64,000 bases of DNA from Vicinamibacterales bacterium (GCA_035495555.1 DATJFQ010000041.1:91894-155893); one strand, 5' to 3'. Positions 15,913-33,700 are shown, numbered from the stretch's first letter. The notes: generated by a model from the letters alone, not told the origin. Made by a program: numbers and translations.

Positions 15913-15952
15913 GGATGGCTTGCCGCCTACTATTTCAATAATGCTACGATGC

Positions 15953-16870: not shown

Positions 16871-16874
16871 CCGT

Positions 16875-16927
16875 CGAATCGCGTTGGTATTTGCAGGCTG
16901 AAGGTACGCTGCAGGCCGCGCGATTCG
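16875..16927. terminator. Nested inverted repeat between convergent genes (candidate bidirectional terminator)
   Basis: CGAATCGCG (16875-16883) pairs with CGCGATTCG (16919-16927). An inner tgcag/ctgca pair lies inside the loop. Confidence 0.3.
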
Positions 16928-16936
16928 CATCGCGCG

Positions 16937-19819
16937 CTACACTGTCGCGCCTTCCTCCACGTACTCTTCCATCGGCGGGCAGGCGCAAATCAAGTTACGA
17001 TCGCCATAGGGATTGTCGATCCGTGCGACCGCCGGCCAGACCTTGTTGAATCGCACGAACGGCAGCGGATACGCGGCTTCCGCGCGGGGATACGGGTGTG
17101 ACCAGTCGTCGGACACGACAGCGATCGCGGGATGCGGCGCGTTTTTGAGCACGTTGTCCTTCGCGTCCGCGCGGCCTTCCAGCACTGCGGCGATCTCTCC
17201 CCGAATCTTGATCAACGCGTCGCAGAAGCGGTCCAGTTCATCTTTCGCTTCGCTCTCCGTCGGCTCGATCATCATCGTGCCGGGCACCGGGAACGAGACG
17301 GTCGGCGCGTGGAAGCCGTAATCCATCAGCCGCTTCGCGACGTCCTGCTCGTCGACTGACGCGCCGCCAGCGTGCTTGAACGGGCGGAGATCGAAGATCA
17401 GTTCATGGGCGACGCGGCCGTTGTGGTTCGCGTACAGGACGTCGTAGTGATCCTGCAGGCGCACCTTGACGTAATTCGCGTTCAGAATCGCCACCCGCGT
17501 CGCATCCGTCATGCCGTCGGCCCCGAGCAGGCGCATGTAGCCGTACGAAATCAACAGGATGCTCGCGCTCCCCCACGGCGCGGCCGCGATCGCCGGAATC
17601 GCCATGTCTCCGCCAACCTTCACGACCGGGTGCCCGGGCAGGTACGCCGCCAGGTGTTTCGCCACCGCAATCGGCCCCATGCCGGGGCCGCCGCCGCCGT
17701 GCGGGATCGCGAACGTCTTGTGCAGGTTCAGGTGGCACACGTCCGCGCCAATCGACGCCGGGCTCGTCAGCCCCACCTGCGCGTTCATGTTGGCGCCGTC
17801 CATGTACACCTGGCCGCCGTTGCGATGCACGATCGTGCAGATCTCTTTAATGCGCTCCTCGAAGATCCCGTACGTCGACGGATAGGTCACCATGAGCGCC
17901 GCGAGACGATCGCGGTGCTGCTCCGCCTTCGCGCGCAGGTCGTCGACCACGATGTAGCCCTGGTCGTCACATGCGACGACCACGACCCGCAGCCCTGCCA
18001 TCGTGGCGCTGGCAGGGTTGGTGCCGTGCGCGGACGCCGGGATCAGGACAACGTCGCGCGCCTGATCGCCGCGGTCGTGGTGATACGCACGGATCACCAT
18101 CAGGCCCGCGAACTCCCCCTGCGCGCCCGAATTCGGCTGCAGCGACACCGCCGCGAGCCCCGTGATCTCGCAGAGCATCGACTCCAGCTCGCGGAACACC
18201 TCCAGGTACCCTTCCGCGTTCTCGATTGGCGCAAACGGGTGCATCCCGGCGAAGCGTGGCCAGCTCACCGGCATCATCTCGGCGGCCGCGTTCAGCTTCA
18301 TGGTGCAGGAGCCAAGCGGAATCATGGAGGTGTCGAGGCCGACGTCCTTCCGCTCGAGCGCGCGGATGTAGCGCATCATCTGCGTTTCAGAGTGATGCGT
18401 GTTGAAAACCGGATGCGTCAGGTAAGCGCTCGTGCGCGCCAGCGCCGCCGGCGCGTGCAGCGCGAACCGTACATCGTCGCGCGCAATCATCGAAACCGAT
18501 TTCCCGATGCTGCGCGCGAAGACGCCGGCAATCGCCGTCACGTCCTCAATGGTGGTGGTCTCGTCGAGCGAGATGCCGACGGCGCCGTCCGCGAAGTATC
18601 GAAACGCGATCTGCGCCGCCGCCGATTCCGTTCGGAGCGTCTTCAGGTCGGCGCCGGTGATCCGCAGCGTGTCGAAATACGTGGAGTTGGTCTGCTCGAG
18701 CCCCAACGCGGTCAGCGCGCTCGCCAGCACGGTCGCGAACGTGTGGATGCGTTCGCCGATTCCGCGCAGGCCGGCGGGGCCGTGGTACACCGCGTACATG
18801 GCAGCCATGTTCGCCAGCAGCGCCTGGGCCGTGCAGATGTTCGACGTCGCTTTCTCGCGCCGGATGTGCTGCTCACGGGTCTGCAGCGCCATCCGATAGG
18901 CGCGGTGCCCCAGGGCATCCACCGATACTCCGATGATCCGACCGGGCGCCTGACGGACGTACGCTTCGCGCGTCGCGAAAAACGCGGCATGTGGCCCGCC
19001 GTAGCCAAGCGGCACGCCGAACCGCTGTGAGTTGCCGACGACGACGTCGGCACCCATTTCCCCGGGGGGCGTAAAGAGCGTGAGCGCCATCAGATCGGTC
19101 GCGACCGCGACGAACACACCGGCTGCGTGGGCCTTCTGGATAATCGCGCGGAGATCGTGCAGCTCACCGCGGTCGTCCGGACACTGCAGCAGCAGCCCGA
19201 ATGCGCGATCCATCGGCATGGACGACGGATCGCCAATCTCGAGGCGGATATTCAGCGGTTCGGCGCGGCCCCGGAGCACCTCGAGCGTCTGCGGGAACGT
19301 GTGCTGTGACACGAGGAACACCGACGGCTGCCCCGCCGGCGCCTTCTTCGTGTTGATGCGATGAAACATCGACATCGCCTCGGCGGCGGCCGTGCCTTCG
19401 TCCAGCAGCGACGCGGTCGCGACCGGCATCCCGGTCAGATCGCCGACCATGGTCTGGAAATTGAGCAGCGACTCCAGGCGCCCCTGCGCGATTTCGGCCT
19501 GATACGGCGTATACGGCGTGTACCAGCCGGGATTTTCGAAGACGTTTCGCTGGATGACGGCAGGCGTGATGCAGTCGTAGTAGCCCATCCCGATGTAGCA
19601 ACGGGTGAGCTGGTTTTTCGCGGCCACCGAGCGGAGCCGGCGCAAATACGCCGCTTCGGTCTCTGCCGGCGGCAGCTTCAGCGGCGCGGTCAGGCGGATA
19701 TCACGCGGGATGGTCTGGTCGATCAGATCGTCGATCGTCCTGACGCCGACCGCGTCGAGCATGCGGCTTCGGGCGTCGGCGTCGGGACCGATATGTCGGG
19801 ATTCGAAAACGTCGTGCAT
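16937..19819 (-). CDS. gcvP: Glycine dehydrogenase (aminomethyl-transferring), single-chain P protein
   Basis: 960-aa ORF: MHDVFESRHIGP…, PYQAEIAQGRLE, PLP-lysine region CHLNLHKTFAIPHGGGGPG. Confidence 0.97.
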   Translation of the reverse strand: MHDVFESRHIGPDADARSRMLDAVGVRTIDDLIDQTIPRDIRLTAPLKLPPAETEAAYLRRLRSVAAKNQLTRCYIGMGYYDCITPAVIQRNVFENPGWYTPYTPYQAEIAQGRLESLLNFQTMVGDLTGMPVATASLLDEGTAAAEAMSMFHRINTKKAPAGQPSVFLVSQHTFPQTLEVLRGRAEPLNIRLEIGDPSSMPMDRAFGLLLQCPDDRGELHDLRAIIQKAHAAGVFVAVATDLMALTLFTPPGEMGADVVVGNSQRFGVPLGYGGPHAAFFATREAYVRQAPGRIIGVSVDALGHRAYRMALQTREQHIRREKATSNICTAQALLANMAAMYAVYHGPAGLRGIGERIHTFATVLASALTALGLEQTNSTYFDTLRITGADLKTLRTESAAAQIAFRYFADGAVGISLDETTTIEDVTAIAGVFARSIGKSVSMIARDDVRFALHAPAALARTSAYLTHPVFNTHHSETQMMRYIRALERKDVGLDTSMIPLGSCTMKLNAAAEMMPVSWPRFAGMHPFAPIENAEGYLEVFRELESMLCEITGLAAVSLQPNSGAQGEFAGLMVIRAYHHDRGDQARDVVLIPASAHGTNPASATMAGLRVVVVACDDQGYIVVDDLRAKAEQHRDRLAALMVTYPSTYGIFEERIKEICTIVHRNGGQVYMDGANMNAQVGLTSPASIGADVCHLNLHKTFAIPHGGGGPGMGPIAVAKHLAAYLPGHPVVKVGGDMAIPAIAAAPWGSASILLISYGYMRLLGADGMTDATRVAILNANYVKVRLQDHYDVLYANHNGRVAHELIFDLRPFKHAGGASVDEQDVAKRLMDYGFHAPTVSFPVPGTMMIEPTESEAKDELDRFCDALIKIRGEIAAVLEGRADAKDNVLKNAPHPAIAVVSDDWSHPYPRAEAAYPLPFVRFNKVWPAVARIDNPYGDRNLICACPPMEEYVEEGATV

Positions 19820-20187
19820 TACTTGGTGAGATCGGAGTACGCGGCGGAGTCGAGCAGGTCGCTCGTGTCCGCGTCGGTCACTTTCATCACAATCATCCAG
19901 GAGCCGTGCGGATCGGTATTCACAACCTCCGGCTTCTGCACGAGTGCGTCGTTGACGGCGGTCACCTCGCCAGCGACCGGACTGTACAGCTCGGACACCG
20001 CCTTGACGGATTCGATGGTGCCGAAGACCTCACCTTTCCTGAGACTCCGGCCGACGGGCGGCAGTTCCAGGTACACGACATCGCCGAGCTGTTTCTGCGC
20101 GTAATCGGTGATGCCAACCCGCGCGTCGCCTGCGCCCAGGCGCACCCACTCGTGGTCCTTCGTGTACTTCAGATCGGTCGGATACAT
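19819..20187 (-). CDS. gcvH: Glycine cleavage system H protein
   Basis: Start MYPTDLKYTKDHEWV (ATG 20187, SD GGGAGA). Lipoyl-lysine motif ESVKAVSE. 1-nt overlap (TAATG) with gcvP. Confidence 0.95.
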   Translation of the reverse strand: MYPTDLKYTKDHEWVRLGAGDARVGITDYAQKQLGDVVYLELPPVGRSLRKGEVFGTIESVKAVSELYSPVAGEVTAVNDALVQKPEVVNTDPHGSWMIVMKVTDADTSDLLDSAAYSDLTK

Positions 20188-20247
20188 TCGATTCTCCCGG
20201 CGCCCCACGCGGGGCGCGCTCCACGACAGCCGGCCGGCCGACGGCCG

Positions 20248-21357
20248 CTACTTCGCGCGCTTGTAAAACGGCATCGGGACGATGACGGCCTTCGCGCGGC
20301 GGCCGCGAACGTCGATCTCCAGGTCCGTCCCCGGTTCGGTCCTGTTCGACGGCACGTATGCCATCCCGATCGCCTTCTTCAAATAGGGCGTCTGCGTACC
20401 GCTGGTCACCACGCCTGCGCGGGCGCCGTCGATGTACACGTCATAGCCGTGGCGCCCGATTGCGCGGTCGACCATCTCGAAGCCAATCAGCTTCTTCGCC
20501 GTACCTTCCGCCTTCTGCCGCCGCAGCACCTGTGCGCCGATGAACGCGTCCTTCTTCCAGCCCACGATCCAGCCAAGATCCGCGTCGAGCACCGTCGACT
20601 GCTCGTCCATGTCGTTGCCGTACAACCGCATCGACGCTTCGAGGCGCAGCGTATCGCGTGCGCCCAGTCCGGCGGGGACGAGCCCGGCGGGCTTTCCCGC
20701 CGCGAGCATCGCGTCCCACACGCGTTCGGCCGCCGCCGGCGCGACGAACACTTCGTACCCGTCCTCGCCGGTATAACCGGTGCGCGAGATCGTCACCCGG
20801 ACGGACGCGACTTCCCCGTTCGCGAACCAGTAGTACTTGATGCCGGCGAGATCGATTCCGGTCAGGGTCTGCAGGATCTCGCGCGCGGCAGGTCCCTGGA
20901 TCGCAATCAGCGCGTACCGTGAACTCGTGTTGACCGCGGCTGCGTCGACGCCCTGGACGTGGTCCGTGATCCAGCGGAAGTCCTTCACGATGTTCGACGC
21001 GTTGACGACGAGCATGAAGTGGTCATCCGCGAGCCGGTAGGTGAGCACGTCGTCCACGAACGTGCCGTCGGGCGTGGTCAGGGCCGAGTATTGGGCCTGA
21101 TTCACCGCGAGCCGCGACGCGTCGTTGCTCGTGATGTGCTGGACCGCTTTGAGCGCGTCGGGCCCGGCGATTTCAATCTGGCCCATGTGGCTGACGTCGA
21201 ACAGGCCCGCGCGCGTGCGCACGGCCATGTGCTCGTCCGCGATGCCCGTGTACTCGACGGGCATGTCCCACCCGCCGAATTCGACCATGCGCGCGCCCAG
21301 CGCGCGGTGGCGCGCATACAGCGGCGTTTTCTTGAGCGTGCCCGAGGGCTGATTCAT
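20248..21357 (-). CDS. gcvT: Glycine cleavage system aminomethyltransferase T protein
   Basis: Internal start MNQPSGTLKKTPLYARHRALGARMVEFGGWDMPVEY (ATG 21357). First gene of the gcvT-H-P order. Confidence 0.95.
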   Translation of the reverse strand: MNQPSGTLKKTPLYARHRALGARMVEFGGWDMPVEYTGIADEHMAVRTRAGLFDVSHMGQIEIAGPDALKAVQHITSNDASRLAVNQAQYSALTTPDGTFVDDVLTYRLADDHFMLVVNASNIVKDFRWITDHVQGVDAAAVNTSSRYALIAIQGPAAREILQTLTGIDLAGIKYYWFANGEVASVRVTISRTGYTGEDGYEVFVAPAAAERVWDAMLAAGKPAGLVPAGLGARDTLRLEASMRLYGNDMDEQSTVLDADLGWIVGWKKDAFIGAQVLRRQKAEGTAKKLIGFEMVDRAIGRHGYDVYIDGARAGVVTSGTQTPYLKKAIGMAYVPSNRTEPGTDLEIDVRGRRAKAVIVPMPFYKRAK

Positions 21358-21649
21358 CCTGGACGCGAGATACCGTGATTGGAGAGCCGCGCGGCTGGCG
21401 CGGAACCCACTAACGGTACTATTGCGCCCGTTCGGGGTCAAGATTTCGACACTTCCGGCGCCGCCTCCTCACGAGAGCACGTCATGCGCGGCGCGGCATC
21501 GACTCCAGCCGAACCTTCCTCGGCAATCCCATCCAAATCGTAACGCGAGGGTCAAAAGCGTCATCGGCCGCGACCGTTGCACACCCGGCGCACACGCGAA
21601 TTCTGCAGTTTGCCTGAAAAGTCTGCGGGTTTTGGGGCGAGCGCGTTGC

Positions 21650-21663
21650 GGCACCGCGGTTGC
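21650..21663 (+). promoter_or_regulatory. Sigma-54 (-24/-12) promoter candidate for the 952-aa surface protein gene
   Basis: GGCACCGCGGTTGC versus GGCACG-N4-TTGC: exact spacing, one mismatch. It lies 67 nt upstream of ATG 21731. Confidence 0.4.
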
Positions 21664-21730
21664 CACTTTCCGGGCCGTGGCCGGTTAGGCCGCACTCTGA
21701 GTTATCCGACCAAGTCCAGGGACCCTTCGT

Positions 21731-24589
21731 ATGAAGCCGATCGTTCCGCTTCTGGTGGCGGCGTGCGCCGTAGTGGCCGCGCAATCCGTGTCCGCGCAGA
21801 CGTCTGCCACCTGGCAGTCACCCGTCAACGTCACGGCATCACCAGGCGCGCTGCAGAAAAGCGGCGGCTGTGACGGCTGTCCCGATTCCGGCGCACACAG
21901 CTCGCAGCAGTTGAGCGGCGACGGCTACATCGACTTCATTCCCGGAATGGACCAACGCCTCTACGCCGGCCTCACGACAGACCTCTCTTCCTCCACGGCG
22001 TCGACGACCATGAACTTCGCCTTCAGTTTCTGGCCGGGCGGCGCATGGGAAATCCGCGAACTCGGCGTGTACAAAGGGGAAGGCACCTTCGCCGCCGGCG
22101 ATCACTTCAGCGTCTCTATCGAAAACGGGGTGGTCGTCTACCGCCACAACGGCGTGGCGGTCTCTCGGAGCGCTACGGCACCGGCGTTCCCGCTGGTTCT
22201 GGACACGACGTTCTACTCGGCCGGCAGTTCACTCTCGGGCGCAACGATCGGCGCAGGCGCACCGCCAAACGCAACGACCGCGCCTCCGCCCGCCACAACG
22301 ACGACTACCATTACCACCACCCAGACCACGACAACCAATCCTGACGGACTCCCGACCCGGACGGCAGTAGGCCCGTACTATGCGGTCGTCGATCGTTACA
22401 CGTACCCGAAGCCGGCTCTCCCGGCCCCCGGGCCCGCCGGCACGACTTTCCAGGATCCGATTTTCGGTTCCTCGATCACCCGCATCACCGACGGCAACGT
22501 GCGACCCGGGTACCTGAATCGCTCCTTCCGCACGCCGTCAGGCACACACCAGCTCGCCTGGAGTGCCAACGGCACCAGGTTCTATGTCGTCAGCACCGAC
22601 GGGACGATTATCCCGTTCACGTTCGACGCGGCCACGCACAGCGCAAAACGGATCCAGCCGACCACCAGCGGCGAAGGCGGCCTCGTGCTGCGGTTCTACC
22701 TGGAACCGCAGTTCTCCTTCGTCAACGACTCGGTCATTTACGGCAGCTCGTCGCTGTCCGGGTCGACGCTGCGCACGGTCGACAAGTACGACTTCTCAAC
22801 CGGGCAGTACTCCACGATCTTCAACCTCGACGCGGTTCAGCCCGGCCTGTCGGGTACATTCATCGGCGGTCTCGGATCGAGCGCCGGTCCCAACGAACGC
22901 GTCCTCGCCTTCTTCGGCGGTACCTCCCAGGACAAACATCACTTGGCCGTCGTCTTCGACGTGGCTAACCCGGCGTCTTATCAGATTGTCGACACGCTCA
23001 CCTCGACGCTGAACGGAGCCCCCGCACCGATCACGCTGAACTTCTCGCTGCACCACGCGAGCATCGACCGCAGCGGCCGGTACGTCATCCTCTACCCCAC
23101 CGGTCCGGACATGCAGGCGCCGCGCTACGCGGCGCAGATGTACGTGTGGGACACCGTCACGGGCACTATGACCGCTCTCGGCGCCTCTGCTCACCCGTAC
23201 GGGCACGACGCGTACGGCTACGGCGTCGCGATCAACCAGGACTGCTGCACGTCCACCACCTGGGACGCGGCACAGTGGCAACTCCGCAACTTCTCGACGC
23301 CCACACTGTCACACGACCTCATCGCAACGGTGCTCTCCCCCAAAGAGACCTCGCTTGCCGATCACCCGTCGTGGAACAACGCGCGCAGTGATCGCCTGGT
23401 TCCTTACGTCAGTGGTCTCTATCGCTACGGCACGAACACCTCTCCCTGGCGCGCATGGGACGATGAGCTGGTGGCGATACAGACGGATGGCGCACAGGGA
23501 ACCGACGCGACCGTGTGGCGATTCGCCCAACACCGTTCCGACGTTCGCAACGACCTCGACGCCACGACGACCTATTTCTGGTACGAGCCGCGGCCGAACA
23601 TCTCCCCCGACGGACACTGGGTCCTGTTCACCTCCAACTGGGAGAAGACCCTCGGCACCGATCCCGGCGGCGACGCCGGAGGCAGCTTCCGCCAGGACGT
23701 ATTCCTGCTCGAGCTGACGCCCTCCACCAGCGCAACGACAACGACAACGACGACGACACCTCCTCCGCCGCCGCCGGCACCGACCGTCGCTCCCGTCGCG
23801 ATCGCGACGAGCAGCGTCCCCGGAGCGCAAATGACGGTGCCGTACTCCGCCGCGGTGACCGCGACCGGAGGCAGCGGGTCGTACCTGTGGACGATCACCC
23901 AGGGGACCCTGCCGCCCGGACTCTCACTCAGTCGAACGCTGGGCGTCATCTCCGGAACGCCCACAACGGCCGGCAGCTTTCCGTTCACGGTGGCGGCGTC
24001 CGACGCCGCCAACAACGCGAATTCCGCCACGAGCTCATACACGCTCGCGGTTTCCGGTGCGCCGCTCCAGATCACGACGCTGCTGGCGCCAACCGCGCGC
24101 GAGACGGTCGCATACTCCGCCGCGCTCGCGGCGAGCGGCGGAAGCGGTTCATACAACTGGTCGCTCTCCTCCGGGACATTGCCGCCCGGCCTGACGCTCT
24201 CCCCCCAGGGCTCGCTCAGCGGAGTCCCCACAACGCCAGGAACGTACGCCTTCATCATCCGGATAGCGGATGCGCAGAACGGCGCGCTCAGCGCGTCGAT
24301 GAGCTACTCCATCCCGGTCCAGGCCGCGATCAGGATCCTGGCGCCGCCATCCACCCTGACACCGCTCCGCAATGCACCGTTCGCCTACGCGTTCACGGCC
24401 GCGAACATCATCGACAAGGCGACCTGGACGATGAGCGGGAACCTGCCGCAGGGCCTCACGTTCAACAGCGCCAGCGGGATCCTGTCGGGCACTCCGAAGA
24501 CCGGCGGATCGACGACGGTGCGGATTACGGTGAGCGACGTTAATACTGCCTGCACGATCTCGGTGGCGCTGAAGATCGCGCAGAAGTAG
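21731..24589 (+). CDS. Large secreted multidomain protein with four C-terminal 'putative Ig' repeats
   Basis: Signal peptide MKPIVPLLVAACAVVAAQSVSAQ. N-terminal beta-sandwich-like domain, a Thr-rich linker, and a central about 450-aa region. Then TTTTTTTTPPPPPPAPT, followed by four repeats of the form G(T/N)LP(P/Q)GL(S/T)…G(V/I)(I/L)SG(T/V)P(T/K)T.G. Confidence 0.8.
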   Translation: MKPIVPLLVAACAVVAAQSVSAQTSATWQSPVNVTASPGALQKSGGCDGCPDSGAHSSQQLSGDGYIDFIPGMDQRLYAGLTTDLSSSTASTTMNFAFSFWPGGAWEIRELGVYKGEGTFAAGDHFSVSIENGVVVYRHNGVAVSRSATAPAFPLVLDTTFYSAGSSLSGATIGAGAPPNATTAPPPATTTTTITTTQTTTTNPDGLPTRTAVGPYYAVVDRYTYPKPALPAPGPAGTTFQDPIFGSSITRITDGNVRPGYLNRSFRTPSGTHQLAWSANGTRFYVVSTDGTIIPFTFDAATHSAKRIQPTTSGEGGLVLRFYLEPQFSFVNDSVIYGSSSLSGSTLRTVDKYDFSTGQYSTIFNLDAVQPGLSGTFIGGLGSSAGPNERVLAFFGGTSQDKHHLAVVFDVANPASYQIVDTLTSTLNGAPAPITLNFSLHHASIDRSGRYVILYPTGPDMQAPRYAAQMYVWDTVTGTMTALGASAHPYGHDAYGYGVAINQDCCTSTTWDAAQWQLRNFSTPTLSHDLIATVLSPKETSLADHPSWNNARSDRLVPYVSGLYRYGTNTSPWRAWDDELVAIQTDGAQGTDATVWRFAQHRSDVRNDLDATTTYFWYEPRPNISPDGHWVLFTSNWEKTLGTDPGGDAGGSFRQDVFLLELTPSTSATTTTTTTTPPPPPPAPTVAPVAIATSSVPGAQMTVPYSAAVTATGGSGSYLWTITQGTLPPGLSLSRTLGVISGTPTTAGSFPFTVAASDAANNANSATSSYTLAVSGAPLQITTLLAPTARETVAYSAALAASGGSGSYNWSLSSGTLPPGLTLSPQGSLSGVPTTPGTYAFIIRIADAQNGALSASMSYSIPVQAAIRILAPPSTLTPLRNAPFAYAFTAANIIDKATWTMSGNLPQGLTFNSASGILSGTPKTGGSTTVRITVSDVNTACTISVALKIAQK

Positions 24590-25243
24590 TCACGGCCGGC
24601 GCGCGAGGCACGGCAGATTGCTTCTGCTGCCTCGCGCGACCAGATCCGCAATCCGGTCGACCCCAACACGGCCGTCCCCCTGTTCCGGGACGACGCGGCA
24701 TCTCCCCTGCTCCAACACCACAAACCTCCCCGCCACATCGTCCAGATCGTGGAGGCGGTGAGATGAAATGAGGATCGCGGTGCCCGCCGCTCCCCAGTCA
24801 CGGATGCGTTCGGTGAGGCGGCGAGCGGCGGGCGGATCGAGGCCGTCCCAGGGTTCGTCGAGCAGCAGGACGTCAGGGGGCGGCCCCTGTAGCGCAATGC
24901 GCAGCCCGAGAATCTGCCGAGTGCCGCGCGAGAGAACGCCGATGCGGCGCCTTTCGTCGGAGGGGACATCGAACAACGCCGCCCATCGCCTGGCGCGGAT
25001 CTGTGGCGGCAACGTGGCCTCCCCCGCGAAATAGCGGATGCGCACCAGTGAAGAGTCCCATCGGACCACACCCTGGTCGGGACGGATCAATCCCGCGGAG
25101 ATGCGCAAGAGCGTGGTCTTTCCCGCGCCGTTCGCGCCCACGAGCCCGACGATTTCGCCTCGCCGCACCTGCAGCCACGCCTGGTTCAGGACGCGATGTG
25201 CACCAAAAGCCTTCGAAACGGCAGAGAGTTCCAGCACGTGCAT
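24590..25243 (-). CDS. ABC transporter ATP-binding protein
   Basis: Internal start MHVLELSAVSKAF (ATG 25243). Walker A GANGAGKTT, signature LSRGTRQ, Walker B LLLDEPWDGLD, H-loop SSHRL. Its stop abuts the stop of the convergent 21731 gene with no spacer. Confidence 0.9.
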   Translation of the reverse strand: MHVLELSAVSKAFGAHRVLNQAWLQVRRGEIVGLVGANGAGKTTLLRISAGLIRPDQGVVRWDSSLVRIRYFAGEATLPPQIRARRWAALFDVPSDERRRIGVLSRGTRQILGLRIALQGPPPDVLLLDEPWDGLDPPAARRLTERIRDWGAAGTAILISSHRLHDLDDVAGRFVVLEQGRCRVVPEQGDGRVGVDRIADLVARGSRSNLPCLARRP

Positions 25244-25932
25244 CACCCCCGGTCTGCGAGCAGCACGTTCAGCCGGCTGGTCGCGCTCACCACAAGCCAC
25301 ACCGCCAGACACGAGAGCGCCGCTGCTCCGGCGAGTACCGGCGGCGGCACCGCGGGCTGATCGCCGATCAACACGAACGGACACACCAGCAACACGAGAA
25401 TGTCCCACGCCCACGCGCCGAAGGCGGGACTGATCGTCATCGACAACGCCCGCAGGTTGTGTTGCAGCAGGACCGCCACGAGCAGCGCCAGCCAGAGGAC
25501 ACCAGCCGAACTACGCGGGAGCCGGAAACCCGCGATCCACGCAATGTTCGACACGATCGCGAGCGCGACGAACCGGCGTCCGCACACCGCCGAGACGGCG
25601 TGTGCGCCGCCAAGCGCCAGCGCGGTGACCGCGACTATGATCCAGCCCGCCACTCCAGGCGCAACGGAAACCGCCCAATGCGCGAGAGCCGCCGACCGGC
25701 GCGGCCGACCGGCGACGAGCACCGCGTCGAAGTGGCCCGCAGACGCACGCGAGACAAACCCGGTCGACGCCAGGAACATCTGGAGAACGAGCAGAAGCCC
25801 CAGCGCGCTGTCCAGCTCCGAGGGATTGTAACGAAGGGTCCAGAGACCAAGCACGACACAGCTCGCCGTCAGGAGCACCGCATGGCCGGGGTGCAGCTCG
25901 GAGACGAGAAAGAACTTCAACAGCCATCTCAC
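25243..25932 (-). CDS. Polytopic membrane protein (putative permease partner of the ABC ATPase)
   Basis: GTG 25932 (GTGA overlap with the upstream stop). About 6-7 hydrophobic segments by eye. TGATG overlap with the ATPase gene. No family recognised. Confidence 0.6.
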   Translation of the reverse strand: MRWLLKFFLVSELHPGHAVLLTASCVVLGLWTLRYNPSELDSALGLLLVLQMFLASTGFVSRASAGHFDAVLVAGRPRRSAALAHWAVSVAPGVAGWIIVAVTALALGGAHAVSAVCGRRFVALAIVSNIAWIAGFRLPRSSAGVLWLALLVAVLLQHNLRALSMTISPAFGAWAWDILVLLVCPFVLIGDQPAVPPPVLAGAAALSCLAVWLVVSATSRLNVLLADRG

Positions 25933-26861
25933 AAGCGCACCTCCGCCACATATCCGCTGCCGAGCAGGAGCACGATGTGGTGCGTGTCGACGGCGAGGAG
26001 CAGACGCGCAGGCTCCGTCAGCTCGTATCGTTCGAGTGCCGCGCCCGCTGGAGAGAAATGCGCGAGCAGCCAACCGCCCGGCGGTTCGGGTGCTCCCGTA
26101 ACCGGAGTCCCCGCGCTGATGATCCACACACTCCCGCCGCGATCGACGAAGGCATCACGAACCGGCCGCGCGGGGTTGTCACTCGTCAACAACACCTCCG
26201 GCGCGACATGCGGAATGCCAGGCAACTCGACCCTGCGCGTGCGTCCGGCTGGATCGATGAGGGCCACAGCCGGATCGTCAGGAAACCAGCACGCGCGCTC
26301 CTCGGCGCGCGTGGGACCGCACGTCACCAGATTCAGCGCCGCAATGGATGTCCGCGCCAGCTTGAACGGCCGCGTCTTCAGCGTGCTCCAGGCCTCGCGT
26401 CTGAAATCGCCCGGCTTTCCTGCGATCAGCGCCTGATCCGGCGCGGTGAACTCGGCCCGTTGAAACACCAGCCGATCACCTGCACTGAAAAGCGACGCAT
26501 GGGCGCCATCGAGCGTGTACTCCCGAACGGTGTCGCCCGTCCGCGAAATCTCACGCAGCGTTTTCCAGTCCCGGATGGTCCACAACGTCCCGTCAGCCAA
26601 TTGCGCCAGGCCCCAGCAGCTCGACGCATCGGCGAGCGCCAACGGATTACGGGTTGAGGTGCGGTGCTGCAGGTCGATCGAGACGAGCGCGCGCTCCGCG
26701 ACGAGCAGCAGCACCGGCCCGTCGTCCGCCGCATCGACACGGCCGGCGAGGATCTCGTTCCCCACCACCGGGCCGAACAGCCGGTCAGGCGCCACCCGTG
26801 TGGCGACGTGCCGGCACGACACGAGGCCCAACACCGCGGAAAGCAACAGGCCTGCACGCAT
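25929..26861 (-). CDS. Lipoprotein of unknown function
   Basis: ATG 26861 preceded by GAGGAGG. Signal plus lipobox MRAGLLLSAVLGLVSC. Beta-rich 310-aa product; no family recognised. Confidence 0.7.
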   Translation of the reverse strand: MRAGLLLSAVLGLVSCRHVATRVAPDRLFGPVVGNEILAGRVDAADDGPVLLLVAERALVSIDLQHRTSTRNPLALADASSCWGLAQLADGTLWTIRDWKTLREISRTGDTVREYTLDGAHASLFSAGDRLVFQRAEFTAPDQALIAGKPGDFRREAWSTLKTRPFKLARTSIAALNLVTCGPTRAEERACWFPDDPAVALIDPAGRTRRVELPGIPHVAPEVLLTSDNPARPVRDAFVDRGGSVWIISAGTPVTGAPEPPGGWLLAHFSPAGAALERYELTEPARLLLAVDTHHIVLLLGSGYVAEVRL

Positions 26862-26912
26862 CAATCCTCCTCAGCGACGCACGGCCGCGCCAGCAGCCGT
26901 GCGTCAATGTGT

Positions 26913-27119
26913 TCAACCCACGAGCACGCGACGCACGCACCCGGCGTACTGCAGTTCGCAGTCGAGCCCGTCCGCCCACCGGTACCAGAAGTTGTCGTCG
27001 TTCGCCGCTCGCGTGTAGCAATCGAGCAGATCGCGCGTGCAGGTCTGCGCGAGCGCGGGGCGGGGAGCGCTCACGAACCCCGCAATCACGGCCACCATCA
27101 CCACTGCCTTTTTCACCAT
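26913..27119 (-). CDS. Small secreted twin-Cx6C protein (68 aa)
   Basis: ATG 27119 with SD GGAGGAG 5 nt upstream. GC-rich third positions. Signal peptide MVKKAVVMVAVIAGFVSAPRPALA. Mature part: QTCTRDLLDCYTRAANDDNFWYRWADGLDCELQYAGCVRRVLVG (4 Cys). Confidence 0.65.
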   Translation of the reverse strand: MVKKAVVMVAVIAGFVSAPRPALAQTCTRDLLDCYTRAANDDNFWYRWADGLDCELQYAGCVRRVLVG

Positions 27120-28618
27120 GTGACTCCTCCAGACTGCGATCCCCTCGCGAGGATCGGTGCGCCTGGCGCGCGCCCCTGCGGAGAATCCGTCCCGCCCGCG
27201 CCAGCCGTAACCGCCGGTGGCGAACCGGCTTCCTCCGGCGGACGCCGGAGATACGCATTGAGCGTGTGATACGAAATCTGCAGCTCGCGACAGGCGCGGC
27301 GCTTGTTGTTGCCGCACCGATGCACCACGAGCCGCACGTAACGGCCGGCCCACTGCCGCAACGTGTGCCGACGCTGGAACGACGGCATCAGGTTCTCCGC
27401 GTACTCGTCGACCAGCGCCGGCGGCAGGTCGTCGAGCTGCAAGTGATCCGAGTCCGCAAGCGCGACGCCGCGCTCGATGACCCGCTGCAACTCGCGGACG
27501 TTCCCCGGCCACGCATACGCGAGCAGCGCATCGGCGGCGGCCTGCGACAGCCGCAGCCGCCGGAACGACCGGTGCCGTTCGAGGAAGTACTCGGTCAGCT
27601 CGAGGATGTCCGCCGGACGCTCCCGCAGCGGCGGCACGGAGATCTCGACACCGTGCAGCCGATAGAACAGATCCAGCCGGAATCGCCCGCGCGCGACGAG
27701 ATCCGAAAGCTTCTGATTGGTCGCCGCGATGATACGGACGTCGACCGGCCGCGTACCCGCGGCGCCGACGCGCTCGATCGACATCTCCTGGATCGCGCGC
27801 AGCAGCTTCGCCTGCGCAGCCGGCGACAAATCCGCCACTTCGTCCAGGAACAGCGTCCCTTCGTGGGCATGCTCGAACTTCCCGCGCCGCCCACGCACAC
27901 CGGTCGCAATGCGTTCCTCAATTCCGAACAGTTCGGCCTCGAGCAGCGTCTCGACAATCGCCGCGCAGTTGACCGCGACGAACGGACCGTTCCGCCGCGG
28001 ACTCAGGTCGTGAATCTGCCGGGCAACGAGCTCCTTCCCGCTGCCGCTCTCGCCCTCGATCAGCACGGTAAAACTCGTCGCCGCGACCCGATCGATCCGC
28101 TCCCGCACCGCACGGATCGCCGCACTGGAGCCGATGATCGGTGCCGCGCCATCGAAACGGCTTCGCACCGCTGCCAACGTCCCCGCCCGGTACGCCCGCT
28201 CCAGCAGCAACACCAACGCCGCCACACACCGCGCATCGTCCAGGAGCTGGGCATCCCAGGGATCGAGGCTCCCACCCGGCCGGTCCAGCGTCAGATCGAG
28301 CGCGCCCAGCACTACCGCACCCGCGACGACGTCGACGCTCATCGACGGAACAGTCGACGCGGGCGGCAACGGCCCATCCCGCAGATGGACGTCCTTGACG
28401 TCGAGCAGCGCCCGAAGCTCGTCCTCGAACTTCCGGCGTAACTGCCGCATGTCCCGCATCGCCGGCAGAGCGCCCGAGATCTCGCGCAACACCGTTCCGA
28501 TCGTCCGACGACGATCCGCCACCCGACATCGTCCGCGCATCAGCCCTCCTCTGTTGCGTGTGGCGGCGGCATGAGTCAAAGAAGGTGCCATCGGCCGAAG
28601 CGCGGATTTTGGCGTCAT
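27113..28618 (-). CDS. Sigma-54-interaction-domain transcriptional regulator (bacterial EBP) with a degenerate GAFTGA loop
   Basis: Walker A GESGSGKE, Walker B TLFLDEV, Fis-type HTH RRACRELQISYHTLNAYLRR. The canonical ELFGHEKGAFTGA is replaced by ELFGIEERIATGV. Start is either ATG 28618 (ATGA overlap with PilZ) or ATG 28540 (SD GAGGAGGG). Confidence 0.85.
   Translation of the reverse strand: MTPKSALRPMAPSLTHAAATRNRGGLMRGRCRVADRRRTIGTVLREISGALPAMRDMRQLRRKFEDELRALLDVKDVHLRDGPLPPASTVPSMSVDVVAGAVVLGALDLTLDRPGGSLDPWDAQLLDDARCVAALVLLLERAYRAGTLAAVRSRFDGAAPIIGSSAAIRAVRERIDRVAATSFTVLIEGESGSGKELVARQIHDLSPRRNGPFVAVNCAAIVETLLEAELFGIEERIATGVRGRRGKFEHAHEGTLFLDEVADLSPAAQAKLLRAIQEMSIERVGAAGTRPVDVRIIAATNQKLSDLVARGRFRLDLFYRLHGVEISVPPLRERPADILELTEYFLERHRSFRRLRLSQAAADALLAYAWPGNVRELQRVIERGVALADSDHLQLDDLPPALVDEYAENLMPSFQRRHTLRQWAGRYVRLVVHRCGNNKRRACRELQISYHTLNAYLRRPPEEAGSPPAVTAGAGGTDSPQGRAPGAPILARGSQSGGVTW
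28576..28590 (-). promoter_or_regulatory. Weak sigma-54-like element at the PilZ/EBP junction
   Basis: Minus strand reads TGGCACCTTCTTTGA: perfect -24 box and correct spacing, but -12 is TTGA instead of TTGC. It lies 36 nt upstream of the alternative EBP start at 28540. Confidence 0.25.
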
Positions 28619-29037
28619 TTCGACGCCTCAGTCAGGTGCGAAGGGGCCACCCCCGGCGCCGCGTGTAGGTCGGACCCGTCACTGACGCTGTTAGTGCCCG
28701 ATTGCGTGTGCACGGAATACCCGACTGGGGCAGTCTCTTCCCGCGGGAGATCGGTGTCCTGGTCGAAGCGGAGAGCCGTTTCGTAAGTCACGCCTTCGAG
28801 GGCGGCGATTGCTCTGACGCTGCATCTGAGGACCAGCGCGCGCACAAGGACGCGAAGGCTGTCCACCGAGAGCTGGAGATCGATCCGGCTTCCGGGCGGC
28901 ATTGGGCGTCGGACGGCAATCGAGGCGCCGCGGCGGCTGAAGTTCAAGAGCGTGCCCTCTCCTCCCGCGCGCACGCGGACGCGGACGTGATTGACCATGG
29001 CGCCTGAGACGCGGCAGTGTTGTCGTCGTTCGGTCAT
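28615..29037 (-). CDS. PilZ domain protein (putative c-di-GMP receptor)
   Basis: 140 aa. RRQHCR (RRxxxR), and 23 residues later NFSRRG (D/NxSxxG). ATGA overlaps at both ends. Confidence 0.8.
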   Translation of the reverse strand: MTERRQHCRVSGAMVNHVRVRVRAGGEGTLLNFSRRGASIAVRRPMPPGSRIDLQLSVDSLRVLVRALVLRCSVRAIAALEGVTYETALRFDQDTDLPREETAPVGYSVHTQSGTNSVSDGSDLHAAPGVAPSHLTEASK

Positions 29038-29612
29038 TGTGCGATCCAGCGGTTCGTGGTGCGGTCGAATTTCAGGACGCGTGCGCGTCCTGTTGCGCCG
29101 AGCACGCGCACGGCGTACTGCGCGCCGTGCGGTGACGTGAGATAGAGCGTTCCGGGCGTCGCCGAGCCGTTCGGGCTCATCGACAGAATTCGTGCGCTGC
29201 CGATGCGGATGCCATCCGGCGATGTCACCGGCTGGTTGTCAGCGTCGGGGACGCCGGGGCCGATCGCGAATCGGACGCCCGGGAAGTTCCAGGCGATCGT
29301 CTCGGGACCTGATAACCGGGGATCCGCGCCGGCCGTGATGTCGGCCGTGCGGATCCCGTTGGCGTTGCCGTCCAGATACGTCGTGTAGGTGTAATCGCTG
29401 TCGGTGGCCTCGAACCGAAGCCCGACGAATGCTGAGCGCTTCACCGCTTCGGCGCGAAGCCGTGCGATCTGTTGCGCGACGTGTCGTGCGGCGGACCGGG
29501 CTCGAAAGTCGTCCACCGTCGAGGTCGACACGGGAATCGCGATCGCCGCGAGCGTCCCCGTCAGAGCGACGACGAATAGCAGTTCGATCAGGGACATTCC
29601 GCGATCTGGCAC
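29034..29612 (-). CDS. GspH/FimT family pseudopilin (prepilin-type N-terminal methylation domain)
   Basis: GTG 29612. Leader (M)PDRG followed by MSLIELLFVVALTGTLAAIAIP, with Glu at +5. 192 aa, with GRAR near the C-terminus. Confidence 0.8.
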   Translation of the reverse strand: MPDRGMSLIELLFVVALTGTLAAIAIPVSTSTVDDFRARSAARHVAQQIARLRAEAVKRSAFVGLRFEATDSDYTYTTYLDGNANGIRTADITAGADPRLSGPETIAWNFPGVRFAIGPGVPDADNQPVTSPDGIRIGSARILSMSPNGSATPGTLYLTSPHGAQYAVRVLGATGRARVLKFDRTTNRWIAQ

Positions 29613-29621
29613 GGCGCTGCC

Positions 29622-29969
29622 TTACTTACCGGCCGAGGGCTCCGCCTTCTGGGCGCCGACAGTGATGTACGGCTTCAGCTTCAGGAAGTTCTTCTCGCCG
29701 ATCCCTTTGACGTTCATCAGGTCTTCGATCTTCTTGAAGCTGCCGTTCTTTTGACGGAACTCCAGAATGCGCTGCGCGGCTTTCGCGCCGATGCCCGGCA
29801 GCGATTCGAGCTGCGCCTGGGTCGCACTATTCAGGTTGATCGGAGACGACGGAGCCGGTGTTTTGGCAGAGCGGGCCGTCGACTTTGCCGGCGTCCCCTG
29901 CTGGGCGGCCGCGGTGTTGGGCAAGGCAGCGAGGGCGAGCAAAGCGAGTGAGAGCAACAGCGTGCGCAT
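29622..29969 (-). CDS. comEA: ComEA family helix-hairpin-helix DNA-binding protein
   Basis: ATG 29969 with SD GGAGG. Signal peptide MRTLLLSLALLALAALPNTAAA. INLNSATQAQLESLPGIGAKAAQRILEFRQKNGSFKKIEDLMNVKGIGEKNF. Confidence 0.85.
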   Translation of the reverse strand: MRTLLLSLALLALAALPNTAAAQQGTPAKSTARSAKTPAPSSPINLNSATQAQLESLPGIGAKAAQRILEFRQKNGSFKKIEDLMNVKGIGEKNFLKLKPYITVGAQKAEPSAGK

Positions 29970-30085
29970 GAATCCTCCAATGCAGACAGGTGTGGTTGAT
30001 GAGTGGCCCCGCCCGCGTGCATCCTGCACAAAGCGAGAGGTCGGGCACCTTGTGAAAGTGAGTGGCGGAGCCGACGGCCCTCAGG

Positions 30086-30100
30086 GCAAAGCTGCCGCCA
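30086..30100 (-). promoter_or_regulatory. Sigma-54-like promoter candidate upstream of comEA
   Basis: Minus strand reads TGGCGGCAGCTTTGC: TGGC and TTGC at consensus spacing, with the CAC of the -24 box replaced by GGC. About 117 nt upstream of ATG 29969. Confidence 0.25.
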
Positions 30101-30274
30101 TCACGACGCGTGCGAGGTGGGGACTGCGTAAGACGTTGGGAGCAAGCGACTTCGACGGTCCGTCGCCCTCACCCGCACTCTCGTGCACCTTTCCGAGACG
30201 ATGGAGCGAGCAACTGCGGTTGCGTGCACTCGACGTCCGGGCGCAGGCGATGTGAGACAATAGCTGTTCACCCG

Positions 30275-30676
30275 ATGGCCAATACCTCAGGCGGCGCGTC
30301 CAGCGGTCTGTCCGTGCTCGTCGTCGACGACAACCGTGATTCGGCGGAGATGCTCCAGGTGCTGCTCAGCATGCTTGGGCACAGCGTCGCCGTGGCGCAC
30401 ACCGGCCGCAGTGCGATCGATACGGTCGTCGAGACGAATCCGCATGTCGTGCTGCTCGATATCGGCTTGCCCGATATGAGCGGCTATGAGGTGGCGCGCG
30501 AGATCCGCTCATCGAATGCGGCGCCGGTGCGGCTGATTGCCTTGACGGGTTGGGGGCAGGAAGAAGTGGCGCGGCAGGCGGCGGACGCCGGGTTCGATCA
30601 GCACCTTACGAAACCGGCCGATCCGGCAGTACTCGAGCGGATTCTCAGCGAGATCGCATCTTCAGTGGTGCGATAG
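30275..30676 (+). CDS. Stand-alone response regulator receiver domain protein
   Basis: Internal start MANTSGGASSGLSVLVVDDN (ATG 30275). LLDIGLPDMSG (phospho-Asp), conserved LTGW and HLTKP. No output domain. Confidence 0.85.
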   Translation: MANTSGGASSGLSVLVVDDNRDSAEMLQVLLSMLGHSVAVAHTGRSAIDTVVETNPHVVLLDIGLPDMSGYEVAREIRSSNAAPVRLIALTGWGQEEVARQAADAGFDQHLTKPADPAVLERILSEIASSVVR

Positions 30677-30760
30677 ACAACTACACAACTGCACAACTGC
30701 CAACGACCCAAGGCGTTCGAGCATTTACGCCTTGGGTGTTTGTGTAGTTGTGTTTGTGCA
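30676..30760. repeat. AACTACACAACT-type low-GC imperfect palindromic element, with a core hairpin likely acting as a bidirectional terminator
   Basis: Left arm: caactacacaactgcacaactgccaac. Core stem: CCCAAGGCG (30707-30715) / CGCCTTGGG (30728-30736). Right arm: gtttgtgtagttgtgtttgtgcac. Lies between convergent genes. Confidence 0.7.
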
Positions 30761-30761
30761 C

Positions 30762-33700
30762 TCAGCGCGTGAGCGCTGCAATCTGCCGCGTGAGCGCTTC
30801 GTACCGCGCGAGCGCTTCTTCGACAGTCTTGACCGCCTGCGCGGAAATTGGTCCGGCGCCTTCCTGCGTCAGTCTGTAGACGCCCTGTAATTCGGCGCTG
30901 ACCGATGCGAGCGTCGGCTGGGCGGTGCGAGCGGCACCTCGCCCGCGGCCGCGTCCCTCTCCGCCGGATCCCGCAAGGGCTGCCAGTTGGTCGGCCCGCT
31001 GTGAGTCGCCCCCGGATCGAGCCCGCTGCTCCGCTGCTGCAATCTGTCCCTTCGCGTGTTCGAGATCCGCGGACGCGTCGTAAACGCGCTTCGCCAACGC
31101 GAACTGATGCGCAATCGTCGCCGCGGTTGATTTGACCCGCGGGTCCATCTTCACCGTCAGCGGCTGCGCCAACGCCTGGCCGTTCACGGTGAGCTTCACT
31201 GTGTACGTCCCCGGAACAACCCAGGGCCCGCGGGGTTCCGCGGGCGTGTTGTGCGGCGTCGCCGAGATTGGGTACGACGGCAGCGCGCCGGGCAGCATCG
31301 GATAATGGAGGTCCCACACGAATCGATGCAGGCCCGCGTCCGCCGCGAGGATCTGCGTCGGCCGGATCCAGTACCGCGGCGTGTTCCCGATGTCGCGAAT
31401 CTCCGGGGCTTTCTCGTCGCTGCTGAAGCGCCGGATCGTCTTCCCTGCGGGGTCGAGCACCTCCAGGGTGACGACGCCGTCGGCGGGCTGCGGCAGGTAG
31501 TAGTTGATGATGGCGCCGTCCGGCGGATTCTGCCCTGCCGGTTCGTCGACCGGCAGCGGCGTATCGGTGTACTTGCTCCAGTCGAAGCGGATGGCGGTCT
31601 GCGGCTTGAACAGGTGCGCCGTCGCCGGCTGCGCGCCGGCGGCCGCAAGCTGCCGCAGCGGGGTCACGTCGTCGAGGATCCAGAACCCCCGGCCGTGCGT
31701 GCCCGCAATCAGATCGTCATCTTTGATCATGACATCCCGAATCGACGTCGCCGGCATGTTGACCCGCAGCGACTGCCAGTGGTCACCGTCGTCCAAAGAT
31801 ACGTACGTCTCCGTCTCGGTTCCCGCGAACAGCAGCCCTTTTTGCTTCGGATCCTCCTTGACCGAATTGACGACGGTGCCGTCGGCGATGCCGGTGACGA
31901 TCTCCGTCCACGTCTTCCCGCCGTCGCGCGTGCGGTAGATATGCGGATGCAGTTCGTCGAGGCGGAAGGTGTTAATCGCCGCATAGGCGCCGAGCGGGTT
32001 CGTATGGGAGGCGTCCATCATCGACACCTTCGCCCAGGCCTTCAGTTGCGGCGGCGTCACGTCCGTCCAGTTCTTGCCGCCATCGGCTGTCGTCTGGATC
32101 AGGCCGTCGTCAGTCCCTGCCCAAATGCGGTTGGGATCCGTGTATCCCGGCGCAATGGTATAGATAACGCCCTTCTGCGAGACGCGCGCCGCGGGCGAGT
32201 CCTTGAAGATGCCGACGTTGGGCGGAACTTCCCATGTGTTCCGCGTGAGATCCGGACTGATTACCGTCCAGCCCTGCAGGCCACCCGTCGTGGTCTTCCA
32301 GAGCTGATTCGAGGCGAAGTAGAGGATGTGCGGATCGATCGGCGAGAACACCAGCGGCTGCGTCCGAACGGTTCGATACTCGCCGCTCTGGCCGCCCATA
32401 CCTGGCCGTGGCGAGACATCGATGACGTTGCCGGTCCTGCGATCGTACCGCGTCACCTTGCCGCCGTAGACGATGTCGGGGTTCAGCGGATCGGGTGCGA
32501 CGTAGCCGTATTCCTCGACGCCGACAGGATGCCAGTCGCGGAACGTGATTCGGCCGTCGTCGCTGCGGCTCGCGACGCACGCGGACCCGCTCTCCTGCTG
32601 GCCGCCGCAGACGCGATACGGGAACGCGTTGTCGGCGCTCACGTGATAGAACTGCGCCGTCGGCTGGTTGTACCACGTGCTCCAGGTGTTTCCGCCGTTC
32701 ACGGTCACGACGGCCCCCTGGTCGGATCCGATGATCAGGATGTTCGTGTCGTCGGGATTGATCCAGATGCGGTGGTAGTCGTCGCCGCCGGGCGCACCGC
32801 GCAGTGAACTGAACGTCCTGCCTCCATCCACCGACTTCCACGCGACGATGCTGGCGGTGTAGACGATGTCCGGGTTCTTCGGATCGACTTTGACTTCCGC
32901 GAAATCATCTCCACGCGTCACCACGAGATCGTTGTCCGTTGCCTTGCGCCAGCTCTGGCCGGCGTCGTCGGAACGATAGAGTCCGCCGTTCTGGCGCGCC
33001 TCGACGGCGGCGTACATCCGCCGCGGATCGCTTGGCGCAATCGTGATCCCGATCCGGCCGAGCCCCTGCTCGAACGTGGGCAGTCCGTTCGTCAAGGGAT
33101 GCCACGTGTCGCCGCTGTCGTTCGATTCGAAGAGACCGCTGTTGGGCCCGGTGAACACGCCGTTTTCCCACGGGCCCTGTCGTGCCTCCCAGAGCACTGC
33201 GTAGATGTGATTCGCGTTCGACGGATCTATGGCCAGGTCGACGGCCCCTGTGTTCTCGTCCTTGTACAGAACCTTCTTGAAGGACTGGCCGCCGTCCATG
33301 GATCGGAAGACTCCCCGCTCCTCGTTCGGTCCGTACGGATGTCCCAGCACGGCGACGAACAGGCGATCCGCGTTGCGCGGGTCGACCACGATTTGCGGGA
33401 TCTGCTGCCCGTCGCGAAGTCCCAGGTGCGTCCAGGACTTGCCCGCATCGGTCGATTTGTAAATGCCGTCGCCCGTCGAGAGATCCGGCCGCTGCAACCC
33501 TTCGCCGCTTCCGACGTAAATGACGTTGGGATCCGACGGCGCCACGGCAATTGCGCCGACGGACCCGGTCGGCGCGTCGTCGAAGATCGGTTGCCACGTG
33601 GTGCCGTAGTCCGTCGATCTCCACACGCCGCCGTTGACGGCGCCGATGTAAAACACGTTCGGCTGGCCCGGCACACCTGTCGCAGATTTCGTGCGGCCTC

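Follow-up and report, generated by a model that had tools for sequence, protein, structure and literature searches.

A GAFTGA-variant enhancer-binding protein of Vicinamibacterales with a putative -24/-12 promoter of its own, adjacent to a predicted comEA-pilin-pilZ operon

The stretch of 64,000 nucleotides (nt) of Vicinamibacterales DNA analysed here (GCA_035495555.1, DATJFQ010000041.1:91894-155893; hereafter the window) encodes on its minus strand an AAA+ enhancer-binding protein (EBP) in which the GAFTGA signature of sigma-54 activators reads RIATGV. Sequence comparison indicates that RIATGV is a conserved alternative L1 loop, present as R[TI]ATGV in Vicinamibacterales and as xxATGV more widely, and not the product of decay. 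We consider it reasonably probable that the protein is a self-activating, sigma-54-dependent regulator of the GAF type, which works with this non-canonical loop from its own promoter, and that the neighbouring comEA-pilin-pilZ genes are a separate matter. The minus-strand gene run comprises, in order, genes for a ComEA-like protein, a prepilin, a PilZ-domain protein, the EBP, a Cys-rich protein of 68 amino acids (aa), a 311-aa protein, a membrane protein and an ABC ATPase. It most likely falls into two adjacent but separate units, a comEA-pilin-pilZ operon and an EBP gene with its own promoter. Close homologues come from Vicinamibacterales, within the soil phylum Acidobacteriota. The original prediction made on this DNA correctly described the neighbouring open reading frames for a 140-aa PilZ protein and an AAA+ EBP; its views of the loop as degenerate, of the two genes as translationally coupled and of PilZ as the input of the EBP are taken up below.

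The loop of the EBP reads ELFGIEERIATGV, with RIATGV at residues 210-215 of the 475-aa form (27896..27913, minus strand; CGC ATT GCG ACC GGT GTG). The NtrC-type protein of the same window (46077-47480, minus strand), which carries GSFTGA and served as the canonical reference, reads ELFGHEKGSFTGA. The replacement of Phe by Ala is therefore real, and the EBP has no canonical GAFTGA; Thr and the Gly that follows it are retained, and the EBP has one residue fewer than NtrC in the segment behind the motif. Among the 120 best homologues (63-97% identity), 112 carry ELFGIE[ED]R[TI]ATGV and 116 a loop of the ELFGI...AT[GD]V type, and the variant is present in all 43 loci of the EBP family, which were taken from species-representative genomes (labelled L001 and so on). 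GAFTGA stands in the seven hits unrelated to the family (Desulfitobacterium, Marichromatium, Marinobacter and others). The loop is thus a conserved variant instead of a degenerate one, kept family-wide instead of being a strain-specific lesion.

The ATPase part of the protein points in the same direction. The Walker A (GESGSGKE) and Walker B (FLDEV) motifs and the segments AATN, FRLDLFYRL and GNVREL align with those of the NtrC of the window, so that Walker A and B, sensor I, the arginine finger and sensor II are all present, as expected of an AAA+ ATPase. Within the EBP family, Walker A and B, the arginine finger, sensor II and the Thr-Gly of L1 are strongly conserved. A recent inactivating lesion of the loop, or a pseudogene, has virtually no likelihood: its sole support is the departure from GAFTGA itself, and it is refuted by the persistence of the loop in more than 100 homologues down to ~42-60% identity and in 43 species-level genomes, with both the reading frame and the ATPase motifs intact. 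One family member is shortened (L058, 4461-5158), being cut to 215 aa just past Walker A with its promoter and GAF-like part intact; it is either a pseudogene or the result of an assembly break.

An exhaustive search of representatives at 50% identity placed the R[TI]ATGV group within a wider xxATGV set, which includes GVATGV, GTATGV and GAATGV. Members of this set have ELFG[IV]E where other proteins have ELFGHE, and include multidomain proteins of 900-1700 aa as well as proteins of Thermoanaerobaculia. This clade is barely described: when the literature was searched for RTATGV, RIATGV, GTATGV and GAATGV as EBP motifs, only a remark on GVATGV in DVUA0100 of Desulfovibrio vulgaris was found. 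Two members outside the family have neighbourhoods of their own. A GAF-containing EBP of Thermoanaerobaculia with GVATGV (L060, 1211-3140) is followed by TGGCAG-N5-TTGC and then by RsbW/RsbV/RsbU-like genes, and an EBP with GTATGV (L059, 5001-6740) lies upstream of TrbC/VirB3/VirB4 conjugation genes, beside transposase genes of the IS21/Mu type. Inside the family, one locus (L035) has two EBPs less than 6 kb apart (333-1001 and 6001-6819). We also considered whether the EER and EDR forms of the loop could mark PilZ-linked and unlinked paralogues, but found a tendency only; both subgroups sit upstream of gcvTHP and are for that reason probably orthologues.

The position of the EBP start is central to the argument. 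The longest open reading frame spans 27113-28618 on the minus strand (501 aa), and its first ATG is joined to the PilZ stop by the letters ATGA at 28618-28615, as had been noted. The translational coupling deduced from this overlap is an artefact of taking the longest frame, because the homologues, mostly 472-475 aa long, start at the equivalent of M27 of the 501-aa frame, a strong ribosome-binding site (AGGAGGG, 28550-28544) precedes the ATG at 28540, and a promoter element (28590-28575) lies in the spacer. Gene callers in other genomes place the EBP start at least 75 nt after the PilZ stop, the gap being 75-240 nt in the other loci. Moreover, when the 26 codons from ATGA to M27 (78 nt) are compared with the 84%-identical orthologue in L001, 10 changes are non-synonymous and 4 synonymous. 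The bases kept are those of the -24/-12 element and the ribosome-binding site; this segment behaves like non-coding, regulatory DNA. The 501-aa start had been entertained as real, its frame being open in several loci, and was ruled out by homologue lengths, ribosome-binding site, promoter position and substitution pattern. We therefore take the EBP to be the 475-aa product of 27113..28540 (minus strand).

The promoter element in the spacer is putatively of the sigma-54 type (TGGCAC-CTTCT-TTGA-C, 28575..28590, minus strand; TGGCACCTTCTTTGAC), with an expected transcription start near 28565. It is the sole TGGCAY-N5-TTG in the 64-kb window. Within the family, 33 of the 37 loci with at least 300 nt of upstream sequence have TGGCAY-N5-TTGN immediately before the EBP and in the same orientation, compared with only four other matches to TGGCAY-N5-TTG in a background of 928 kb (0.0014 per equivalent zone). 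A subgroup formed by L034-L036 and L039, the four loci that lack the element, has a different N-domain. The -24 half is perfect. In the -12 half TTG is retained, and where the consensus has C, the 35 sites have G (27), T (six) or A (two) and never C, the base varying among lineages. A window-wide search for TGGCAC-N5-TTGCW with two mismatches returned 16 sites against 19.8 expected, which is not above chance, and the promoter signal emerged only through conservation across loci.

Two dyads, putative upstream activating sequences, precede this element. The distal one (28708..28722, minus strand; GGGTATTCCGTGCAC) corresponds to the consensus GGGTA-N5-TGCCC, and the proximal one (28663..28677, minus strand; GGGTCCGACCTACAC), ~45 bp downstream of it and 87 nt upstream of the -24 T, to GGGCA-N5-TACCC. 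GGGYA-N5-TRCCC has 23 exact matches in the 602 kb of locus sequence, and every one of them is located no more than 160 nt upstream of the EBP promoter. The proximal dyad begins 87-89 nt before the -24 T in most loci; in one subclade the distance grows to 108-109 nt (+21). This dyad is also found in loci that lack PilZ (L017, L019, L028, L030, L033). Between dyads and promoter lies an AT-rich tract (28606..28620, minus strand; AAATGACGCCAAAAT), which holds both the PilZ stop and the first ATG of the 501-aa frame, a spurious start; the pattern AAATGA-N5-6-AT-rich recurs ~15-37 nt upstream of -24, again also without PilZ (L002, L025, L030, L033, L038). As read from the sequence, the layout is that of a classical sigma-54 promoter, with predicted upstream activating sites, a probable bending region and a -24/-12 element. 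A scan of 26700-30400 for sigma-70-like promoters gave no promoter-like site and no minus-strand terminator, and a search of 15000-32000 against Rfam gave no match, and hence no RNA element known to Rfam in the PilZ-EBP spacer. Elsewhere in the window, a canonical CGGCAC-N5-TTGC (21649-21664, plus strand) stands 67 nt upstream of a He_PIG/Ig-repeat gene for a 952-aa secreted protein (21731-24589); the element is conserved in L001 (12868, minus strand), and the flanking spacer is not.

With a conserved promoter of the -24/-12 type and dyads in front of this gene in 33 of 37 loci, and with GVATGV relatives associated with promoters of the sigma-54 type, action of the EBP independently of sigma-54 appears unlikely. 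The other half of what had been proposed, that it acts in a modified way, is plausible, and none of the findings named in advance as counting against the proposal was obtained: orthologues with an intact GAFTGA, a PilZ-EBP pair that does not recur, or PilZ motif residues that are not conserved.

The domains of the EBP fit a regulator that senses its own signal. The central region matches Sigma54_activat (PF00158; 1.4e-60) and AAA_lid_14 of Pfam. Residues 1-137 have no match in Pfam, and their AlphaFold2 (AF2) model (pLDDT 81) shows the order helix-helix-strand-strand-strand-helix. Its best matches in the PDB by Foldseek are all GAF domains (among them those of KdpD, PDE2A, Nlh1 and NifA; TM ~0.5-0.6, E ~1e-2), and the best NCBIfam similarities of the EBP are to NifA and NorR, both below cut-off. 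What had been called a short, non-receiver N-domain is thus modelled as a GAF-like fold of ~135 residues (28130-28540, minus strand). The model would thus make the EBP a one-component regulator of the GAF type, and with such a domain no partner would be needed as its input. At the C-terminus, a putative Fis-type helix-turn-helix gives a weak match to HTH_8 (E=0.004, below cut-off), and PF02954 is recorded for some homologues; its motif NNKRxACRELxISYHTL is nearly invariant in the family.

From this arrangement we infer the following course of events. The EBP would bind the dyads through its near-invariant helix-turn-helix and, upon a trigger perceived by the GAF-like domain, would use ATP to switch on sigma-54 RNA polymerase at the promoter of its own gene, which would amount to positive autoregulation; the transcript would continue into the downstream genes for secreted proteins and the ABC transporter. 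Contact with sigma-54 would be made through the non-aromatic L1 loop. The avoidance of C at -12 could be matched to this loop, or could supply basal expression. On the latter view, a weak -12 'lock', as known from -12 mutants, could provide the low level of expression on which a positive autoregulator depends. In PspF, residues of L1 cross-link to the -12/-11 DNA (PMC3467059), and a matched change in loop and -12 is therefore conceivable, although this is speculation.

Several points weigh against a self-activating, sigma-54-dependent EBP. In PspF, substitution at every GAFTGA position tested abolishes open-complex formation (PMC3467059), so that a loop with Ala for Phe should fail with standard sigma-54. 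The -12 element lacks its near-invariant C, and recognition by sigma-54 is thus not assured. Both dyads of the window differ from the consensus by 1-2 bases, and the protein that binds them could be a regulator other than the EBP. No rpoN gene or RpoN box was found in the window and the fetched loci, and the presence of sigma-54 in this genome is accordingly presumed. Finally, the PilZ gene is frequently adjacent to that of the EBP, and the two could be linked in function.

The first of these points could be taken further. If the EBP were unable to engage sigma-54 productively, it might act at the dyads as a repressor or anti-activator, or remodel a different target, and another, canonical EBP would fire the promoter. 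The loss of PspF activation upon Phe-to-Ala and other L1 substitutions (PMC3467059), the repression exerted by some EBPs such as PexR in the resting state (PMC12754779) and the canonical GSFTGA protein in the same window are all compatible with such a role. We nevertheless regard it as unlikely, as the strong conservation of the ATPase motifs and of the Thr-Gly of L1 argues for ATP-coupled remodelling through this loop. In addition, dyads at ~-100 and ~-145 with an AT-rich tract fit the geometry of an activator and not the occlusion of a promoter, and these dyads accompany the EBP gene in every lineage.

The PilZ-domain protein (140 aa, domain from residue 1 to ~100; 28615..29037, minus strand) matches Pfam PilZ (PF07238; 4.9e-6) with 27.2 bits against a cut-off of 22.5. 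Both motifs for binding of cyclic di-GMP (c-di-GMP) are present as had been stated, RRQHCR as R4-R5-x3-R9 and NFSRRG as N32-x-S34-x-x-G37; among 18 orthologues, R4, R5 and R9 never vary, and S34 and G37 hardly do. A profile search yielded 645 homologues, mostly of 144 aa, and RRxxxR together with [DN]xSxxG is conserved in 117 of 120 among the matches listed. The PilZ gene is tied to the genes that precede it. Its start overlaps the stop of the prepilin gene (ATGA, 29037-29034), with an overlap of 4-16 nt in nearly every locus. The prepilin (192 aa; 29034..29612, minus strand) is an orphan of the GspH/FimT family, with a class III signal (RG|MSLIELL), 29.5 bits against a cut-off of 21 for Pfam GspH (PF12019), a match to N_methyl and a TIGR02532 score above cut-off. 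Its C-terminus, VRVLGATGRARV, carries GRAR, a case of GRxR, the DNA-binding motif of FimT (PMC8897410), and 12 of 13 orthologues share VRVLGxTGRxRV. The gene has no other pilin genes at its flanks, and the domain, signal, orphan setting and GRxR of a FimT-type pilin are thus found together. The first gene of the trio (29622..29969, minus strand, ATG at 29969) encodes a 115-aa ComEA-like, helix-hairpin-helix DNA-binding protein predicted to be secreted. It matches Pfam HHH_3 (2.9e-22) and TIGR00426, the ComEA helix-hairpin-helix repeat region (59.7 bits against a cut-off of 53.1), its N-terminus resembles a signal peptide, and the gene is syntenic in ~24 loci. A GRxR pilin next to ComEA suggests, on the strength of gene content, a DNA-uptake module, and the PilZ protein would most likely be a c-di-GMP receptor tied to the function of a type IV (DNA-uptake) pilus.

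The trio is constant, and the EBP gene comes next in most cases. The adjacency of PilZ and EBP genes does recur, in 24 of the 36 EBP-centred loci with upstream sequence and in three of the four distinct PilZ-centred contexts. PilZ is absent from the other 12, the pair being split in L002, L017, L023 and others, the trio stands without an EBP in L055 and next to the truncated EBP in L058, and 3.4-4 kb of unrelated genes separate PilZ from EBP in L014 and L018, so that the pair is not strictly conserved. Furthermore, the last ~35 pilZ codons (28615-28730) overlap the upstream activating sites of the EBP. The tail peptides GY[LS]VP and GHxLP are conserved because they translate the dyad sites, and PilZ orthologues of 100-115 aa end before them.

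These observations bear on the proposal that PilZ is a c-di-GMP-sensing partner of the EBP, in the manner of PspA-PspF or FleN-FleQ, and that the EBP acts without sigma-54, for instance at sigma-70 promoters like TyrR, VpsR and the NtrC proteins of Rhodobacter and Caulobacter. The frequent adjacency in EBP-centred loci and in most PilZ-centred ones, the conserved PilZ motifs, the requirement for Phe85 in PspF (PMC3467059) and the c-di-GMP-responsive, EBP-like proteins described in accounts of VpsR (PMC6158489) and FleQ (PMC10723142) speak for it. However, the coupling of PilZ is with the pilin, the EBP gene is preceded by a promoter of its own, the pair splits in both directions, and the EBP carries its own GAF-like sensor. 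The sole conserved promoter nearby is of the -24/-12 type, with no sigma-70-like site in the scan; the known sigma-54-independent EBP homologues have lost the loop, whereas the Thr-Gly core and all ATPase motifs are kept and strongly conserved here, and xxATGV relatives are associated with sigma-54 promoters. The proposal thus seems to us quite improbable, and the role of PilZ as input of the EBP is left without support. PilZ is more plausibly the receptor of the pilus/DNA-uptake operon than the sensor of the EBP.

Downstream of the EBP, the small secreted Cys-rich protein (68 aa, four Cys; 26913..27119, minus strand) has the ribosome-binding site GGAGGAG before its ATG. The overlap of its start with the EBP stop makes co-transcription of the two genes probable; orthologues are found behind the EBP in L001, L002, L016, L022, L051 and L056. 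The secreted 311-aa protein (25929..26864, minus strand) has no Pfam or NCBIfam match, and the ABC ATPase (24590-25414, minus strand) matches ABC_tran. The order of 311-aa protein, membrane protein and ABC ATPase is kept in L001, L002, L016, L022, L042 and L051-L057, and in this lineage these genes probably belong to the EBP transcription unit as its downstream portion. The cluster is followed by gcvT, gcvH and gcvP (16937-21441, minus strand), which lie directly downstream of the EBP in many genomes; the Rfam search of 15000-32000 found no glycine riboswitch before gcvT. On the other side, a stand-alone response-regulator receiver protein (30062-30676, plus strand) is encoded divergently from comEA.

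GAFTGA is regarded as the invariant hallmark that defines sigma-54 activators, and a regulon survey of 2025 retains only proteins that contain it (PMC12316311). A large natural Phe-to-Ala clade that combines intact ATPase motifs with -24/-12 promoters would mean that the rules of contact are broader than in the model systems and that surveys miss such regulators. What is most interesting here is that an L1 loop without its aromatic residue goes together with a promoter in which the consensus -12 C never occurs. It is tempting to go further and see in the xxATGV proteins a second, mechanistically distinct class of sigma-54 activators, which would engage region I of sigma-54 and the -12 fork junction with no aromatic residue in the loop and in Vicinamibacterales would be co-adapted with promoters that avoid the -12 C (0/35), alongside canonical GAFTGA activators and TTGC promoters. 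We put this forward as a long shot; if true, two orthogonal activator/promoter dialects would coexist in one cell, both depending on a single sigma-54 or on a second one that escaped detection. As a compact system for tests, the locus combines a single EBP, a promoter of its own that departs from the consensus at -12, and two defined dyads, and it could show in what way activation depends jointly on the L1 loop and the -12 fork junction. The adjoining comEA/FimT-like pilin/pilZ operon suggests, as far as gene content can tell, control of DNA uptake by c-di-GMP in a soil phylum. To our knowledge, natural competence has hardly been described in Acidobacteriota.

The closest parallel to the EBP is DVUA0100 (GVATGV), for which comparative genomics predicts action at the sigma-54 promoters of type III secretion operons (PMC4641369). 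Both proteins have xxATGV in place of GAFTGA, with Ala for Phe and Val for the last Ala, and both are single-component proteins with a non-receiver N-terminal region. The DVUA0100 gene also lies within or next to a unit with a promoter of the sigma-54 type, and the protein is predicted to bind upstream of such promoters (PMC4641369), as is proposed here. The two differ in the first residue of the loop (Gly there, Arg here), in N-domain, targets and phylum, and the promoters of DVUA0100 were treated in scoring as ordinary sigma-54 sites, whereas none of the present ones has the -12 C; in both cases function is predicted from sequence.

In architecture, the EBP, with a GAF-like sensor, an AAA+ domain and a putative Fis-type helix-turn-helix, resembles the one-component regulators NifA, NorR, FhlA, Nlh1 of Aquifex and PexR of Myxococcus, and the model of its N-domain matches, among others, the GAF structures of Nlh1 and NifA. 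The EBP gene has several putative upstream dyad sites, and PexR likewise binds at its own promoter (PMC12754779). In contrast to the EBP, all five have a canonical GAFTGA, and the GAF-like domain of the EBP is reduced (~135 aa, with three strands in the model) and undetected by Pfam. TyrR, the NtrC proteins of Rhodobacter capsulatus and Caulobacter, and VpsR share with the EBP an AAA+ core of the PF00158 type without a canonical GAFTGA. Proteins of this type have lost the loop or key ATPase residues and act at sigma-70 promoters. The EBP, on the contrary, keeps a loop with Thr-Gly and all ATPase motifs and is associated with a promoter of the -24/-12 type, and does not belong with them on these features. 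VpsR of Vibrio cholerae is, moreover, described as responding to c-di-GMP (PMC6158489).

The neighbouring operon recalls the FimT and ComEA transformation machinery in having an orphan GspH/FimT prepilin with GRxR beside a ComEA-like periplasmic DNA-binding protein. FimT is known from work on Gammaproteobacteria, whereas the present genes are from Acidobacteriota and include a translationally coupled PilZ absent from the reports of FimT studies; DNA uptake is here a prediction from the genes. The PilZ protein itself resembles single-domain PilZ adaptors, being a stand-alone PilZ domain with RxxxR and D/NxSxxG. It differs from them in that the gene order points to pilus and DNA-uptake genes and not to a transcription factor, and in that its C-terminal tail appears to be shaped by overlapping regulatory DNA and not by protein function.

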